Shown one piece after another: positions 7,093 through 43,419 of a stretch of DNA of 64,000 nt. The stretch is from positions 2,807-66,806 of the forward strand of contig CALUUN010000006.1 of assembly GCA_944323995.1 (NCBI GenBank). Direction: 5' to 3'. Below the pieces are notes generated by a model. It was not told the DNA's origin and searched no databases. It was given only the letters and a program-made list of their open reading frames with translations. Made by a program: the position numbers and the translations under genes. The DNA is from Candidatus Gastranaerophilales bacterium. GTDB lineage: Bacteria > Cyanobacteriota > Vampirovibrionia > Gastranaerophilales > Gastranaerophilaceae. The stretch's first letter is position 1, and the number at the start of each line of letters is the position of its first letter.

Positions 7093-8253
7093 TTGGTAAA
7101 ATGCAACGACAATGCGATTACTACGTCGAATGCTGCGCATTCTCCTCGTAATGACAAGACTGTAAAAAGGAGCGTCGCAATCGCAAAACCGATAAAATGT
7201 GGTAGTAAGCGCAAAAAGGCCGCCTTCACTTTAGCGGAAGTATTGATAACCTTAGCAATTATCGGAATAGTCGCAGCACTGACAATCCCGACACTAGTGC
7301 AGAATTTCCAGCAAGATGCATGGGATACAGCATCTGAAGTATTCCAAAGAAAACTTGAAGAATCGTTAAAGGTTATGAATGTTCAGGGAACCTTAGCAGG
7401 CTATACAACAACAGAAGCATTTGTTGATGAACTTTCTAAACATATTAAGATAACAAGAATATGCGATAACGATGATATTACAACATGCTTTGCAGATAAA
7501 GTTACATGGGGAACAGAGAATGAAGAAGTAGCGATGGCGGATGTAAAAAGAGCATCACACTTCGGACAAGATAGCTGGGGAACAAATACTGTAGGAGTGC
7601 AGTTTGCAAACGGAGTAAATGCAGTATTAGCATATAACCCCGAGTGCGTACAGAACCAGTTTAGTAATCAAATAACAGGAACAAGCTGCTTGGCAATATT
7701 GTATGACGTAGACGGATTTAAGAATCCAAATACACAGAATAAAGATTTAAGAAGTATAAACGTATCAAGTTTAGGCGGAAGTTCATGTTCATTTGAAGTA
7801 GACGGAATATGTTTCGGAACACTTTTCCAACCGACAGCATTAACAGCAGCAGATTGTAATGCAAACAAAGACAAATACGGTATACAAACCTGTAGAACAA
7901 CAGATGACGATTTCTGGGGCGGCGCAATGAAAGCATGTGCAGATCAAGGAAAGCGATTACCGACGGACAGTGAGCTATTAGCATTAGCAAATGATTTATA
8001 CGGTAAAGACATGTCAGGTGGAGACGATGATTTAGTCGAAGGTACCATGGATGAAGACAAAGCAAGCTCATACGGCTTCACTCTCACTGACCTAGGTGGC
8101 GGAATCAGCGGCTTCTACCTGTGGTCCGGTCAGGAGACGGACGCTCGCGACGCGCACGCGCGCGCATTCGGCTCCGTGGGCACGGGCTGGCTCTCGAATG
8201 GCGACAGAGACGGCTCCGTCCCGGGCTTCTGGGCGGTTTGCGTAGGTGAATAG
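7093..8253 (+). CDS. pilin-like protein (prepilin-type N-terminal methylation-like motif) with DUF1566/C-type-lectin-like C-terminal domain and VR-like tail, copy 1
   Basis: KKAAFTLAEVLITLAIIGIVAALTIPTL. The C-terminal domain reads WGGAMKACADQGKRLPTDSELLALAND...FYLWSGQE...AVCVGE. The start is uncertain: the track uses TTG 7093, and an in-frame ATC at 7180 lies 7 nt after AAGGAG (7167-7172). Confidence 0.75.
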   Translation: MVKCNDNAITTSNAAHSPRNDKTVKRSVAIAKPIKCGSKRKKAAFTLAEVLITLAIIGIVAALTIPTLVQNFQQDAWDTASEVFQRKLEESLKVMNVQGTLAGYTTTEAFVDELSKHIKITRICDNDDITTCFADKVTWGTENEEVAMADVKRASHFGQDSWGTNTVGVQFANGVNAVLAYNPECVQNQFSNQITGTSCLAILYDVDGFKNPNTQNKDLRSINVSSLGGSSCSFEVDGICFGTLFQPTALTAADCNANKDKYGIQTCRTTDDDFWGGAMKACADQGKRLPTDSELLALANDLYGKDMSGGDDDLVEGTMDEDKASSYGFTLTDLGGGISGFYLWSGQETDARDAHARAFGSVGTGWLSNGDRDGSVPGFWAVCVGE

Positions 8254-22609: not shown

Positions 22610-24325
22610 ATGGGAAATTTTAAAAACAACAATCGAAACAAGCAGCAGAATGACAATACTGTTGTTGAAAAGAAAATTGTCATTGCAGAACGCGACAATA
22701 TTGCAGCAGTTCTGGAAAACAAAAAAGTAACGGACTTTTTCATTCATAGAGGCGACGTATTGCTCGGGGATGTTTATCTTGCAACTGTTGACAATATTTT
22801 GCCGAGTATTGATGCGGCATTTGTTAATGTAGGCACAGATAAAATGGGCTTTTTGCACGCGGAAGACGTTATGGGCAAAGGCACCTTGAAAGAAAAATTA
22901 AAACCGAAACAAAGACTTATTGTTCAGGTGGTAAAAGAACCCACAGGTCATAAAGGTCCCAGAGTTACGACAGAAATAAGCCTTCCCGGAAGATTTCTTG
23001 TCCTGATGCCTTATGAACCGGGCGTGAGCGTAAGTAAAAAGATTGAAAATTCCAAAGAAAGAGCAAGGCTTAAAGCTATAATGAACCTGATAAAACCTGT
23101 CGGAGTCGGCGTTATTATAAGAACAGAAGCCGAAGGTCAGTCAGAAGCCGATATTCAGGAAGATTTGGAAATCCTGCTTGAAAAATGGAATAATATTATA
23201 ACATCATCAGAAACCTTAAATCCTCCGAATCTTATATACAGAGATCAGGATTTGTTATACAGGGTAATCAGAGAAGCCTGCACGGATGATGTCAAAGAAA
23301 TTATTGTTGATACGGCATTTGCCTTGAACAGAGTTCAAAACATTCTGCAAAACTGGCACATGAACAAAAACGTTCAGGTGACATTATACAAAGGCACAGA
23401 ACCGCTTCTGGTTGCAATGGATATTCATAAAGAAATCAAAGCCGCTTTGAACGTAAAAGTTAATATGCCCTCGGGCGGTTATTTGTTTATCCAGCAAACA
23501 GAGGCTCTTACGGTAATTGATGTTAACAGCGGCAAATTCACAAGTTCGGCAACTCAGGATGAAACAATTTTAAAAACCAATATAGAAGCTGTCCATGAAA
23601 TCGCACGCCAGCTCAGATTAAGAAACATCGGCGGAATGGTTATTATTGACTTTATTGATATGGTTTCGCGCGCGGACAAACTTGCCATAATGGAAGAATT
23701 GGAAATTGCGCTTGAACCTGACAAGGCAAAACCTCAGGTCGGCCAGCTTTCGGATCTCGGGCTTGTTGAATTGACACGCCACAGACAGGGGCAGTCGCTT
23801 TCCGAAATATTTACCAAAAAATGCCCGCACTGTCAGGGAAGCGGTTATTTTATGAACGAATTTAACTTTGCAACTCCGACCGCAGAGGGTGAATACAGAG
23901 CAAAACAGGCAAAAACAAAACTCCCTGTTTCAAACAGCTTCAAGAAAAACAAAAATAACAAACCTCAAGAGGCGGAACCTGCGGTTGAACAGCAGCAGGC
24001 GCCCGTTCAAATAGAAGTTGAAAATCCGTCGCAGACTGCGCAGAATAATGAAAATTCAAAACGCGATAACAAACGCAAAAACAACAAGCGCGGCAAATTT
24101 AATAAAAATAAAGAACTTCAGGCGGAAAACGAAGTTCAAACCGCAGAAACATTGATTAAACCTAACGAAGAAATAAAACCTGTGGTTGAAGCTGCGGAAC
24201 AGGCTCCGGTTGAAATTTCCGAACCCGTTGAGGAAAAAACGCAAAAGGAAGAAAAACCGAAAAGAAAACGTACGGCAGCAAGAAAACCGAGAGCAAAAAA
24301 AAGCGAGGCAAAAGTTGAAGCATAA
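22610..24325 (+). CDS. rne: ribonuclease E/G family (Rne/Rng) with K/E/Q-rich C-terminal tail
   Basis: S1 domain GDVYLATVDNILPSIDAAFVNVGTDKMGFLH. Catalytic core ALTVIDVNSGKF...GGMVIIDFIDM. Zn-link CPHCQGSG. Confidence 0.9.
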   Translation: MGNFKNNNRNKQQNDNTVVEKKIVIAERDNIAAVLENKKVTDFFIHRGDVLLGDVYLATVDNILPSIDAAFVNVGTDKMGFLHAEDVMGKGTLKEKLKPKQRLIVQVVKEPTGHKGPRVTTEISLPGRFLVLMPYEPGVSVSKKIENSKERARLKAIMNLIKPVGVGVIIRTEAEGQSEADIQEDLEILLEKWNNIITSSETLNPPNLIYRDQDLLYRVIREACTDDVKEIIVDTAFALNRVQNILQNWHMNKNVQVTLYKGTEPLLVAMDIHKEIKAALNVKVNMPSGGYLFIQQTEALTVIDVNSGKFTSSATQDETILKTNIEAVHEIARQLRLRNIGGMVIIDFIDMVSRADKLAIMEELEIALEPDKAKPQVGQLSDLGLVELTRHRQGQSLSEIFTKKCPHCQGSGYFMNEFNFATPTAEGEYRAKQAKTKLPVSNSFKKNKNNKPQEAEPAVEQQQAPVQIEVENPSQTAQNNENSKRDNKRKNNKRGKFNKNKELQAENEVQTAETLIKPNEEIKPVVEAAEQAPVEISEPVEEKTQKEEKPKRKRTAARKPRAKKSEAKVEA

Positions 24326-25750: not shown

Positions 25751-25819
25751 GATAACTCTATATTAACATAAATAATTTTGCTATTTTAAAATTCAATCAA
25801 AAAGAGCAGAAAAAAGCAC

Positions 25820-25848
25820 TTGCCAAAATTCAAAAAAAATGCTATATT
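25820..25848 (+). promoter_or_regulatory. sigma-70-type promoter of pilin-like gene copy 2
   Basis: TTGCCA (25820-25825), a 17-nt spacer, then TATATT (25843-25848). Confidence 0.6.
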
Positions 25849-26127
25849 AAAACAGTAGTACGACACAAGAGCAACGAAAGGGGCTAAAAGTATGATGAAT
25901 AGTGGATTTCAGCCTAAATGGGGGGGGGTACTTCTTTAAGCTCTCACCGTGCGGGTTTCGGGGTATTTTGGAGTAAAGCGATAAGCAAAAGCACCGCGCA
26001 GAGTGCATTTGCAGACTCGGTAAATTGCAACGATAATGCGATTACTACGTCGAATGCTGCGCATTCTCCTCGTAATGACAAGGGATACAACCCTCTACCT
26101 TTGGGAGAGGGTGGCACGCAGTGCCGG
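25849..26127 (+). promoter_or_regulatory. long conserved 5' leader (copy 2) with mini-ORF 25892-25939, a G9 tract (25920-25928) and palindromic repeats
   Basis: Near-identical to 6865-7038. It continues with the element aatgcgattactacgtcgaatgctgcgcattctcctcgtaatgacaag, which is shared with 7113-7158. Confidence 0.55.
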
Positions 26128-27162
26128 GTGAGGGTCAAAAAGGCCGCCTTTACTCTTGCGGAAGTCCTGATAACTCTTGCGATTATAGGAATAGTCGCAG
26201 CATTAACAATCCCGACGTTAATTCAGAATTATCAAGAAAGAGCATGGAACACAGCATCACAGGTATTCCAGAGAAAACTCGGCGAAGCATTAAGGGTTAT
26301 GAATGTTCAGGGAACCTTAGCAGGTTATACAACAACAGAAGCGTTTGTTGATGAATTATCTAAACATATCAAGATAACAAGAATATGTGATAACGATGAT
26401 ATTACAACATGCTTTTCTGATACCGTAACCTGGGGTGATGAAGAAGTTGATATGTCTAAAGTTAAAAAAGCAAAAAACTTCGGACAAAACGACTGGGATA
26501 CAAACACGGTAGCAGTACAGTTTGCTAATGGCGTTAACGGCGTAATAGCATACAATCCGGATTGCAGACAGAACCAATTCAGTAATGATGTAATAACAGT
26601 AGGAGAAACCGGAATAGGCACAGATTGTCTTGCAATATTATATGACGTAGACGGATTTAAGAACCCTAATACCGAAGGTAAAGATTTAAAGAATCTAAAC
26701 GTAACAAGTTTAGCAGGCAGCAACTGTGCAATAGAACTAAGTGACGGAACATGCTTTACCGCACCATTCTATCCAACAGCAGTAACAAAAGCAGAATGCG
26801 ACCAATTAGTAGCAGAGGGTTATCCGATAAAAGAGTGTTATCACGAAAGTGACCGCTGGGCCGGCGCAGTAAAAGCATGCCATGATATGGGCTCAAGTTT
26901 ACCGAGTGATACAGAACTGATGAAACTTGCAGAAGAGTTATATAAAGACGCAAGCGGGGCGTCACTCACAGACAACAGAAATAACGACCTTGCAGTATCA
27001 ATGGGATTTATCTCCTCTCCCGGCAGTCCGTTTTACCTGTGGTCGAGTGAGGAGTACAGCAAGTACTACGCGTACTACCGCTACTTCAACTCCGCGCACA
27101 CGTACCGGAACTACAGCAGCCGCATCAACAGCAGCAATCAGGCGGTGTGCTTATGTGATTAA
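26128..27162 (+). CDS. pilin-like protein with DUF1566/C-type-lectin-like C-terminal domain and VR-like tail, copy 2
   Basis: The in-frame GTG at 26128 gives MRVKKAAFTLAEVLITLAIIGIVAALTIPTL. The C-terminal domain reads WAGAVKACHDMGSSLPSDTELMKLAEELY...FYLWSSEE...AVCLCD. The track ORF extends to ATG 25918 through the leader. Confidence 0.75.
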   Translation: MRVKKAAFTLAEVLITLAIIGIVAALTIPTLIQNYQERAWNTASQVFQRKLGEALRVMNVQGTLAGYTTTEAFVDELSKHIKITRICDNDDITTCFSDTVTWGDEEVDMSKVKKAKNFGQNDWDTNTVAVQFANGVNGVIAYNPDCRQNQFSNDVITVGETGIGTDCLAILYDVDGFKNPNTEGKDLKNLNVTSLAGSNCAIELSDGTCFTAPFYPTAVTKAECDQLVAEGYPIKECYHESDRWAGAVKACHDMGSSLPSDTELMKLAEELYKDASGASLTDNRNNDLAVSMGFISSPGSPFYLWSSEEYSKYYAYYRYFNSAHTYRNYSSRINSSNQAVCLCD

Positions 27163-27181
27163 ATTTTCCAATTCCTAATTC

Positions 27182-27206
27182 GCGCGATTTTTCCAGAAAA
27201 TCGCGC
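27182..27206. repeat. perfect 10-bp-stem hairpin GCGCGATTTT-tccag-AAAATCGCGC, 20 nt after the stop codon
   Basis: The arms are exact reverse complements with a 5-nt loop. It is followed by cccgcc with no T-run, so it is not a canonical terminator. Confidence 0.8.
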
Positions 27207-27207
27207 C

Positions 27208-27258
27208 CGCCAAGGGCACCGTGGCTCCTGCCTCTGCTCGGCTTGCTTAGGTGATTGA
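27208..27258 (+). pseudogene. vestigial third copy of the VR-type 3' end (reads ...GSCLCSACLGD-stop)
   Basis: cgc caa ggg cac cgt ggc tcc tgc ctc tgc tcg gct tgc tta ggt gat tga. The 20-mer at 27244-27263 matches 27148-27167 at 17 of 20 positions (17 of the 19 positions spanning tgctta..aattt), and the ending parallels tgc gta ggt gaa tag of copy 1. Confidence 0.55.
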
Positions 27259-27326
27259 ATTTCTTTGTTTTAATAATGCGGTATTTGTAACTTTCCACAA
27301 GTGCCGCTTTTTTAACAGCTGAATTT

Positions 27327-27657
27327 CCTCTCCCCTTGTGGGAGAGGCAGAATTTCAACACGAGGAACGAGTGTTAGAAATTCAGGTGAGGGGTAATTTG
27401 AGAACTTCATGCATATTTAGACCCCTCACCCGCATTTGTAGTTCACTGCGTTCACACAACTGCGGCCTCTCACCTTCACTTTGTTACGGAAGCAGGCTCA
27501 CACAACTCGTTCCTCGTTGGTTCGCTTTGCTCCTCAAGGGGAGAGGCTATTCTTACGTTGGTTCGCTTTATTCCTCAAGGGGGGAGGGAGTTTCAGGCAT
27601 ATCAGTACCGCAGCAATGCGATTACCACGTCGCTTTGTGCTTATCGGATAATGACAA
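27327..27657. repeat. cluster of nested palindromic/dispersed repeat elements (noncoding, GC-richer)
   Basis: Contains hairpin 27327-27347 (identical to 8265-8285); inverted repeat 27356-27376 with 27499-27519; a 9-bp stem 27385-27393 with 27422-27430; repeat copies at 27515-27546 and 27552-27596; and element 27615-27657, related to 7113-7158 and 26036-26081. Confidence 0.75.
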
Positions 27658-27782
27658 GAGTTATCACCATCCCTTTTAAGTTTTTGTTAAATTTTATTCA
27701 CAAAACTCTCAAATCATGCAATTTACTCTGAAAAAAAGACTTTATATAAACATAGTCGTGTAGTTTTGTTTTAGTGTGGAAA

Positions 27783-41424: not shown

Positions 41425-43419
41425 ATGTCAGTAAAAGCAGTACAGTTAGCAAACGCGGAAACAAAGCGTAATTATAACAATAATCAGCAGAAACATAACA
41501 ATGTTTCATTCGGTAATGCGGGAAATCCTGTTATCACATTAATGGATGCAATAGACAGAGGCGGTTTTGCCGCATCGTTTATTATGCAGGATTTTTTAGG
41601 CATGGCCGGCCCGCGTGTTTTGACAGGCATGTACAGAAACCATGACAAAACCGGTCAATTGAACTGGGATTTTGCCAAAAAAGAAGGTATCAGAGAAATT
41701 TTAAGCGGTCCGAGTGCGTTTTTAATTCCGGCGGCTATGATGTTCGGAATTAAAAAAGTTTCGGGCACTGCAAATAATGTTCCGGTTGATTTTATTAACG
41801 GTTTCGGACACACTTTTGCGGAATATGCAAAAGCTAATAAGGCAACTCTTTCGGATGCGGCAAAAACAAAGCTCGGATTTTACGAAGAAGTGTTCAAAAA
41901 TATGCTTTCCGCATCAACCAACAAAGGTCTTGCGGGAGAAGAATTGGACAAAACAGCAAAAGAATTTGCCCAAAGGCTTATAGAAGCTGAAAAAGCTCCG
42001 AAAAAGAGTTTTTGGAAACATCTTACCGGTAAGCACGTAAAAGGTTCGGCTCAGGATTTGCAGCATGAGCTTATGGAAGATTTTGTAACCCGCCGCAAAC
42101 AATTTTTGGGAGCGGAAGGCGACAAAGTTATTGCCGAATACGGGGTTCCGAACGATAAAAAGATTGCATCTTCCTTCAAATCAATGCTGAAGCATATGGA
42201 AGATTATTCACATGATGCAATAAAAAGTGTGAATAAACAGCTTAAAAAAGCTCAGAACGCGGATGTTGACGAAATAGTAAAAACCTTGAGCAAACGCCGC
42301 ACCGGCACGCGCTTTTTATCTAATATCGGTATGTGGCTTGCTGTTGTAGGTTTTTATACAATTATTCCTAAACTTTACAACCATGTAACCAAAGGCCGCG
42401 ACCCCGGACTGGACGGTCTCGGAGTTCAGGATGAAAATGTTAAAAAGTCTGCCAACCCGACTTTTTCAAACGAAAAAGAAGTGACAGACGGCAAAAAAGA
42501 TGATAAAGCTGCCGATAAAAATGCTCAGCCGTCATTTACAGGTATTCAGAGTTCAATGGCAAAATTAGGCAAGACTGTTGTTGATACGCCTGCTGTTAAA
42601 AAATTCTCAAATGCGTTTGAATTTGACGGTGCAACAATGTCTATGCCGGCAATGCTGACATTGCTTTTCGGGTTCTGTCTGCCGCCGAGGTTAATTCATG
42701 CGCAGAGCAGCACTGACAGAAAAGAAATACTTATGCGTGATATAACAAGTTTCCTTGCTATATTATTCGGTTCAAAAGCAATTAACAGAGTAAGTTCAGA
42801 CATATTTGCAAAAGAATCCGGACTTGCGTTGAATATCAAACCGGCAAATCATAATGACAATATTTTCAAAAAAATATGGCATTATATCTACCCGACCGGC
42901 GGTGTTCAGGTGCTTGACAGCGACAGAATTGTTTCAACTTACAGCGATGTTTCGTCATTCAAAAACGGTATAAACGATATGTTCAGATTTGTCGATAAAA
43001 ACGGCGGCAACGTCGGTAAAATGCTCGGTATTGATAAAGATATCAAAGCTGCGGCATCTGAAATTCTCGGCAAAGCGCCCGATAAACGCATGAATCTCAA
43101 TGAAATTATAAAAGCGTTTGATAAAGCTAAAGATACCGACGCTTATAAGAAAATTGTCGATATTCTCGCAGATAAAGGCAACACAATCGTAAAACGCGCT
43201 AAAACTTATAACAGTGCTTTCGGATTTGCGTCAACCGTGCTTCTTGTACCGGCGTTGATGATATGGATTTCAAAACACTGCGAAAAAATGACAAAACAGC
43301 ATATTGCGGAACAGAAAAAGGCCTCAATGGAAAATATGGCAAAACAAACTCAGGTGCCGGATTCAATGAGGGTTGTAACAAACAAACCGACAATGGCAGG
43401 GTTTTTAAACAGAGCGTAA
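41425..43419 (+). CDS. large hypothetical membrane protein (paralog family with 2392 ORF)
   Basis: 664 aa. Shared blocks are FLGMAGPRVLTGMYRNHDKTG...KKEGIREILSGPSAFLIPA and PRLIHAQSSTDRKEILMRDITSFLAILFG. It has a C-terminal TM helix. Confidence 0.6.
   Translation: MSVKAVQLANAETKRNYNNNQQKHNNVSFGNAGNPVITLMDAIDRGGFAASFIMQDFLGMAGPRVLTGMYRNHDKTGQLNWDFAKKEGIREILSGPSAFLIPAAMMFGIKKVSGTANNVPVDFINGFGHTFAEYAKANKATLSDAAKTKLGFYEEVFKNMLSASTNKGLAGEELDKTAKEFAQRLIEAEKAPKKSFWKHLTGKHVKGSAQDLQHELMEDFVTRRKQFLGAEGDKVIAEYGVPNDKKIASSFKSMLKHMEDYSHDAIKSVNKQLKKAQNADVDEIVKTLSKRRTGTRFLSNIGMWLAVVGFYTIIPKLYNHVTKGRDPGLDGLGVQDENVKKSANPTFSNEKEVTDGKKDDKAADKNAQPSFTGIQSSMAKLGKTVVDTPAVKKFSNAFEFDGATMSMPAMLTLLFGFCLPPRLIHAQSSTDRKEILMRDITSFLAILFGSKAINRVSSDIFAKESGLALNIKPANHNDNIFKKIWHYIYPTGGVQVLDSDRIVSTYSDVSSFKNGINDMFRFVDKNGGNVGKMLGIDKDIKAAASEILGKAPDKRMNLNEIIKAFDKAKDTDAYKKIVDILADKGNTIVKRAKTYNSAFGFASTVLLVPALMIWISKHCEKMTKQHIAEQKKASMENMAKQTQVPDSMRVVTNKPTMAGFLNRA

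Follow-up and report, generated by a model that had tools for sequence, protein, structure and literature searches.

A patchwork 3' end with a candidate target-site hairpin in a pilin-like DGR target gene of Gastranaerophilales

Efficient DGR retrohoming in phage BPP-1 depends on an inverted repeat just downstream of the VR (Guo et al. 2011, PMC3240598). Hairpins of this kind follow most DGR VRs, have GC-rich stems of 7-10 bp with 4-nt GRNA loops, and lie 4-34 bp from the VR; enlarging the BPP-1 loop by 2 nt nearly abolished function (PMC3240598). There is no such hairpin 3' of the TR (PMC5758913).

The locus described here lies in a window (the whole stretch of DNA analysed, 64,000 nucleotides) that corresponds to C6:2807-66806 of a 1.75-Mb Gastranaerophilales MAG (G000). 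It resembles the BPP-1 target site in having a VR at the 3' end of a gene, a VR end that differs from the TR end (IMH versus IMH*) and an inverted repeat shortly past the VR (20 nt here) with no counterpart behind the TR; at 10 bp, the stem is inside the 7-10 bp range of BPP-1-type hairpins. However, the loop is a 5-nt TCCAG instead of a 4-nt GRNA, and 6 of the 10 stem pairs are G+C where the described stems are strongly GC-rich. Moreover, the targets of the DGR are about 23 chromosomal pilin-like genes, reached in trans, and the majority of them are hairpin-less.

Multi-target DGRs (Treponema denticola TvpA, Legionella LdtA and those of cyanobacteria) provide a second comparison. These, like the present system, combine one avd-TR-RT cassette and one adjacent VR with many remote VRs, and their targets are paralogous surface proteins with A-specific substitutions. 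The present system differs in the very large number of targets (about 23, plus about 11 for a second DGR on contig C8), in their prepilin type, in the coexistence of two types of VR end, a and b, and in the retention of displaced ends as scars. The swapping of the 3' parts of pilin-like genes between paralogues by non-reciprocal recombination, which the locus appears to record, is reminiscent of Neisseria pilE/pilS. Here, in contrast, there are no promoterless silent cassettes, the remnant is 19 nt long with two orphan ends genome-wide, and diversity comes from the DGR, recombination reshuffling ends and UTRs only.

A repeat that contributes to the locus, E, is a short structured multi-copy intergenic element like REP, BIME, Correia and RUP sequences. 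Unlike these, it is without terminal inverted repeats, and one of its copies, a syntenic 'master', has promoter-like and terminator sequences; compensatory changes back the structure of E, its target duplications measure 14-38 nt and it belongs to no Rfam family. Set against these systems, the 3' end is a scar of a rather ordinary kind, left by recombination within a family of about 23 sister genes, a fresh example of known things (a probable DGR target-site hairpin, recombination scars in a gene family) in a DGR that is unusually target-rich. E is the more unusual item.

The target gene and the DGR that writes it

The gene and the elements of its 3' end that match the DGR are as follows.

25918-27162, + strand: pilin-like DGR target gene ('copy 2'), an ORF of 414 aa with N_methyl/prepilin domain matches
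27029-27159, + strand: VR of copy 2, defined by its blastn match to TR2 at G000:C19:22872-23000
27139-27166, + strand: current type-b VR end (IMH-like), caggcggtg-TGCTTATGTGATTAA-attt, encoding C-L-C-D-stop

The VR occupies the C-terminus of the protein, at the 3' end of the ORF. The protein has a prepilin N-methylation motif; its tail is G+C-rich and finishes with AVCLCD-stop. Pfam recognizes in the protein the N-terminal pilin motif alone. The gene may start at an in-frame GTG at 26128.

No TR or RT was found within the 64-kb window. The genome encodes two RVT_1 reverse transcriptases, on contigs C19 and C8. On C19 the order is a pilin-like gene with the home VR, avd, an A-rich TR (22872-23000) and the RT (RVT_1 match at C19:23446-24120). 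The avd product matches bAvd (PF22296) at 62.9 bits (cut-off 40) and the Avd model NF033474 at 70.8 bits, under the cut-off of 80. The RT has an IGNLTSQ motif, which we take to be a hallmark of DGR RTs.

The VR of copy 2 differs from the TR by 13 A-site and 3 non-A substitutions, the C19 home VR by 17 A-site and no non-A substitutions, and across the VRs of the genome 30-55% of TR adenines are changed. By this A-specific pattern copy 2 is a genuine DGR target, written in trans by the C19 cassette. The VR of the paralogue at C4:77002 is decayed, with 24 A-site and 18 non-A-site differences from the TR.

About 23 loci of the genome match the C19 TR, and their VR ends are of two types. Most of the loci have type a (cttagcggaatag), and type b (cttaggtgattaa-attt), which goes on resembling the TR end (cttaggtaatgaaaac), is found at the C19 home VR, copy 2, C3:132181 and C4:77002. 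Since more distant Gastranaerophilales MAGs have type-b-like ends as well, type b looks like the ancestral end type.

The second DGR (RT, avd and TR1 at G000 C8:56686-58200) serves the VR family of another gene in the window, copy 1 (7093-8253, VR part 8060-8253), which is among the roughly 11 loci that match TR1 genome-wide. In a sister species, G007, the contig with the RT begins 579 nt before the RT, and TR and VR are not on that contig.

Composition and origin of the 3' UTR

The first-pass annotation had described 82 nt behind the gene as a perfect hairpin followed by a vestigial third VR end. Comparison with the other VR loci of the genome indicates that these 82 nt are three pieces of different origins, namely a C19 flank, the tail of E and a former gene end. 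The features of the 3' UTR are as follows.

27166-27224, strand not given: 59-nt block including the hairpin, identical at 59 of 59 positions to C19:21970-22028
27182-27206, strand not given: perfect inverted repeat with a 10-bp stem and a 5-nt loop, recognized from its arms and fold, candidate DGR target-site hairpin/cruciform
27225-27246, + strand: truncated, non-folding 22-nt 3' tail of the structured repeat E (ctcctgcctctgctcggcttgc), identical to the E tail at C3:4098-4119
27244-27262, + strand: displaced former type-b gene end TGCTTAGGTGATTGAATTT, encoding C-L-G-D-TGA, its first 3 nt overlapping the E tail
27263-27417, + strand: former 3' UTR and downstream repeats, collinear with the C4 paralogue
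27278-27313, + strand: intrinsic terminator of the gene (11-pair stem and T6), the same terminator as after most VR2-family genes

The counterpart of the 59-nt block on C19 is the sequence directly past the stop of the RT-adjacent home VR. Together with the preceding gene end, the block is identical to C19 at 85 of 86 positions, while the copy 2 gene and the C19 home gene are otherwise about 83% identical. The single exception, 27154, has T for G in the live end, which turns Gly into Cys and CLGD into CLCD.

The displaced end was recognized in the first-pass annotation from the match of 27244-27263 to 27148-27167 at 17 of 20 positions. This is the sole other match of the 20-mer in the window at <=3 mismatches, and 0.08 such matches are expected in shuffles. 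From 27244 to 27417 the window runs collinear with the C4 paralogue (C4:77002-76829) through the gene end, 3' UTR and terminator of the latter, with about 97% identity over 174 nt (96.6% over 175 nt). Relative to this paralogue, the window contains a 96-nt insertion (27148-27243) between ...ggcggtg and TGCTTAGGTGATT, so that the proposal of a current 3' end placed upstream of an older one is borne out. As had been noted, the remnant ends C-L-G-D-stop; it is also in frame with the gene, the insertion length being a multiple of three. Stop-codon readthrough into the remnant was considered and set aside: the frame match is a 1-in-3 coincidence and nothing speaks for readthrough. The live end (at 27154) and the scar (at 27257) are each one base off the consensus TGCTTAGGTGATTAA, and the A>G change at 27257 converts TAA to TGA.

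The remainder of the earlier description needs revision. The 'NNC-rich open remnant' does not consist of VR codons: 27207-27224 belong to the C19 block, 27225-27246 to the E tail, and the last ~19 nt alone are a VR end. The NNC-rich reading frame is thus an accident of joining these three sequences. Nor is there a third VR, since what precedes the remnant is the tail of a generic repeat and not the body of a VR. The possibility that the remnant is a generic repeat present at unrelated loci applies to the E tail, which recurs at tRNA genes and an intergenic locus, and not to the 19-nt end. A genome-wide census of TGCTTAGGTGATTAA at <=1 mismatch gave four real ends and two orphans, both orphans fused to an E tail; apart from these two orphan ends of 19 nt, every VR-like match is either a TR or located where a full gene ends. 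The genome-wide look for further silent fragments that had been proposed thus gives two orphan ends and no pilS-like store. In the same census, VR1-type ends were all at real gene ends, with 0 orphans.

Repeated VR cassettes in a MAG, some 23 in this one, are a classical source of chimeric joins, and a short match can arise by chance. Either explanation is extremely improbable here. The 17-of-20 match, expected 0.08 times, runs on into a collinear flank of 174 nt; contigs assembled separately from three samples reproduce the entire 3' flank of the window without a single base difference (over 600, 600 and 269 nt); and the two novel joints share no k-mer-sized repeat able to mislead an assembler. 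The exact 414-aa copy 2 protein is present on 15 contigs of independent assemblies. The patchwork is real DNA. Among these 15 contigs there is no VR variation at copy 2, the 90% protein cluster has one member and the protein has no recorded strain variants; with the same protein on 15 of 15 contigs, the VR is not seen to be diversified in populations.

The copy-2 cassette (~25790-27680) comprises a promoter-like site, a conserved leader, the gene, its UTR and a repeat cluster. All five alignable sister species lack it between panE and the HD-GYP gene, which identifies copy 2 as a lineage-specific insertion. With no orthologous locus carrying the cassette, there is no orthologue in which the remnant is the live end, a role that the C4 paralogue fills. 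The panE/HD-GYP spacer of the five sister species measures ~45-140 nt. The AT-rich borders of the cassette resemble each other and the empty site, and a target duplication of ~18 nt at these borders is possible.

It seems likely that the 3' UTR patchwork arose by ectopic recombination among the ~23 paralogous target cassettes, with the imported hairpin as the likely homing element. In the sequence of events that we infer, the older locus would have ended ...ggcggtg-TGCTTAGGTGATT(A/G)A-attt-ctttg...terminator, as C4:77002 does today. At some stage E would have come to sit directly in front of this old end. The E tail in the window suggests that the state before the exchange was probably like C3:3844-4150, where a VR, its end and a short flank are followed by a full E and a displaced type-b end. 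A later DNA exchange with a C19-type locus would then have supplied the new type-b end and the 59-nt flank.

Upstream, this exchange would have been anchored in the conserved VR scaffold; since conservation of the 50 nt preceding the VR extends to every paralogue, this stretch is uninformative on the tract boundary, and the crossover is not delimitable within the scaffold. Downstream, it would have been closed by an illegitimate joint (caccgtgg/ctcctgcc) with 1 nt of microhomology, deleting E but for its last 22 nt. The net result would be the 96-nt insertion in front of the old end, which would now be a silent scar, and the imported flank would have brought in the 10-bp inverted repeat, which most likely acts as a homing hairpin or cruciform, as in BPP-1. 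The cassette-type recombination envisaged in the first-pass annotation accords with this, the new end and the 59 nt matching the flank of the C19 home VR as paralogous-cassette exchange would predict. The order and number of recombination events have no unique reconstruction from the sequence.

Imprecise cDNA replacement had been suggested as well. In such a process, cDNA from a non-TR RNA (for example C19 home-target mRNA, with a template switch onto E RNA) would have been integrated at the IMH and the end duplicated. Several features are consistent with this route. The right joint falls exactly where the G+C-rich part of the IMH stops (ggcggtgtgc/ttaggtgatt), which by analogy with BPP-1 is the expected 3' cDNA integration point (PMC3240598), and the same joint recurs at four loci in two species. 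Moreover, E is truncated on its 5' side, like an incomplete cDNA, and the joints have just 1-3 nt of microhomology. Against it, the block is absent from the C19 TR and its 3' flank, so that normal TR cDNA could not have delivered it. The RT-Avd of BPP-1 is intrinsically error-prone at adenines, and cDNA of a home-target mRNA should carry A-to-N changes. However, all 13 adenines of the block are unchanged (17 of 17 over 70 identical nt), compared with 30-55% changed in VRs; at 30% per A, zero changes have a chance of ~0.01. In addition, full E copies with target duplications are also found in genomes without detectable RT (G019 and G012). The cDNA route is therefore improbable, and exchange at the DNA level appears the better explanation, given the lack of the block in the TR and its flank and its unchanged adenines.

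The inverted repeat behind the VR

The perfect hairpin reported in the first-pass annotation is confirmed. It reads GCGCGATTTT-TCCAG-AAAATCGCGC, with exactly reverse-complementary arms and a DNA fold energy of -11.6 kcal/mol, and begins 20 nt past the TAA stop (27160-27162) of the pilin-like gene. No T-run adjoins it on the + strand (past 27206) or on the - strand (ahead of 27182). An intrinsic terminator was considered and ruled out for want of a T-run, the terminator of the gene being that at 27278-27313; as the latter is 3' of both the hairpin and the second end, both are inside the 3' UTR. In the window, 6 different perfect stems reach 10 bp or more, equivalent to 14 registers, and Markov-1 simulations give a mean of ~1 register.

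A search of 22 genomes of the genus for GCGCGATTTT-N3-7-AAAATCGCGC found this pattern only in the window, at the C19 home VR and in G007. In one G007 locus (C26) the hairpin is 9 nt past a type-b VR end (...ttaggtgattaag), and in another (C58) a copy truncated by another repeat is 3' of a further type-b VR end. The stem, of 6 G-C and 4 A-T pairs (60% G+C), is conserved in sequence among the hairpin copies and thus shows no covariation; the loop is TTCAG in G007. Rfam covariance models gave no match over the hairpin or E at E <= 1 to 5.

The favoured reading, which we hold with somewhat more confidence than doubt, is that of a DGR target-site hairpin or cruciform whose function is proposed by analogy. 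It is suggested by the position 20 nt past the stop, the 10-bp stem, the absence of the hairpin behind the TR and its exclusive link to VR ends. The position falls within 4-34 bp past the VR, none is present behind the TR and the TR flank differs in sequence; the 5-nt TCCAG loop, which is not GRNA, and the 60% G+C stem do not fit the consensus of DGR hairpins. This hairpin is present at just 2 of the ~23 VRs of the genome, and several hairpin-less VRs equal the hairpin-bearing ones in their match to the TR at non-A positions. It is therefore not essential for targeting here.

The same misfit of the loop, and the lack of the hairpin at the majority of VRs in the family, leave some room for a function unrelated to homing, such as a 3'-UTR stabiliser or processing site in the mRNA, or an operator for a dimeric protein, carried along with the C19-type flank. 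A perfect palindrome with a 5-nt spacer is typical of protein operators, and the hairpin is inside the transcript, 5' of the terminator at 27278-27313. This alternative is rather unlikely, given that the hairpin occurs solely right behind type-b VR ends in two species among the 22 genomes searched, that it adjoins the RT-adjacent home VR, and that the lack of a T-run on both strands rules out a terminator. Its distance from the stop also falls in the 4-34 bp range reported for DGRs (PMC3240598).

The locus reads as a preserved before-and-after record of a remote DGR target gaining a 3' recognition end, a hairpin-less old IMH-type end having been displaced by a copy of the hairpin-bearing end of the home target. 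Should the hairpin be functional, such exchanges would allow a genome to gain new targets for a trans-acting DGR or to renew existing ones. The locus also shows that 3' UTRs are mosaics where a genome has dozens of VR cassettes, and orphan ends can mislead automatic VR/IMH calling. A modest practical use is also conceivable: the copy 2 locus and C4:77002 form a natural allele pair for studying hairpin dependence in a non-phage multi-target DGR.

Other palindromic sequences occur behind VR ends of this genome. At about 12 VR2-family loci, a conserved mini-hairpin, (A/T)GCC-GCAA-GGC(T/A), is located 7 nt past the stop of type-a VR ends (for example at G000 C6:1260-1290, C9:30735-30760 and C1:62262-62285). 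Its loop is 4 nt long, one variant is compensatory (tgcc..ggca), and this gcc-GCAA-ggc hairpin may be the equivalent of the DGR hairpin for type-a targets. At G000 C3:4005-4022, the junction of a full E with the flank of a type-a VR end creates a perfect 18-nt palindrome (GGCGCAGCA joined to TGCTGCGCC), 15 nt past the stop and placed much as the hairpin at 27182-27206.

Repeat E

E is ~100 nt long and genus-wide, with 1-12 copies in 19 of 22 genomes. Full copies are located behind VR ends at C3:3985-4119 and C13:7938-8089, and a 'master' copy (C10:43612-43725) occupies an unrelated intergenic site. The syntenic copy has promoter-like and terminator sequences and contains 1-4 tandem units. Sister species carry E downstream of tRNA genes and at other sites (loci L017, L066, L067 and L070). 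RNAalifold predicts 21 pairs, 8 of them with compensatory changes, and G-U pairs favour the + strand. A variant ending ...CTCGGCTTGC lies behind tRNA genes and at other sites, flanked by direct target duplications of 14, 16, 23 and 38 nt, often of tRNA 3' ends.

The joint of the E tail with ttaggtgatt exists at exactly four places: the window, C3:4117, G007:C26 and G007:C76. Its location exactly at the expected cDNA-joining point of the IMH, at four loci in two species sharing this DGR, could mean that the DGR machinery has captured E, as a small structured RNA, where VR ends were nicked, either by template switching or by off-template priming. Such capture would be a bacterial analogue of SINE-like retro-insertion, and displaced ends such as 27244-27262 would be its footprints. 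We regard it as very improbable. Recurrent site-specific capture of E at the IMH is possible and not needed as an explanation: the cassettes share their downstream terminator and repeats, so that a single origin of the joint, followed by conversion between cassettes, would account for all four. SINE-like retro-copying of E was also rejected as the main reading, since G019 and G012, which carry full E with target duplications, have no RVT_1 match.

At a further locus (L018, G012:C18 ~42560-42760), a stretch of ~40 nt that spans the 5' end of a tRNA gene and the flank upstream of it occurs a second time ~100 nt further upstream, which suggests another insertion in which the tRNA 5' end was rebuilt.
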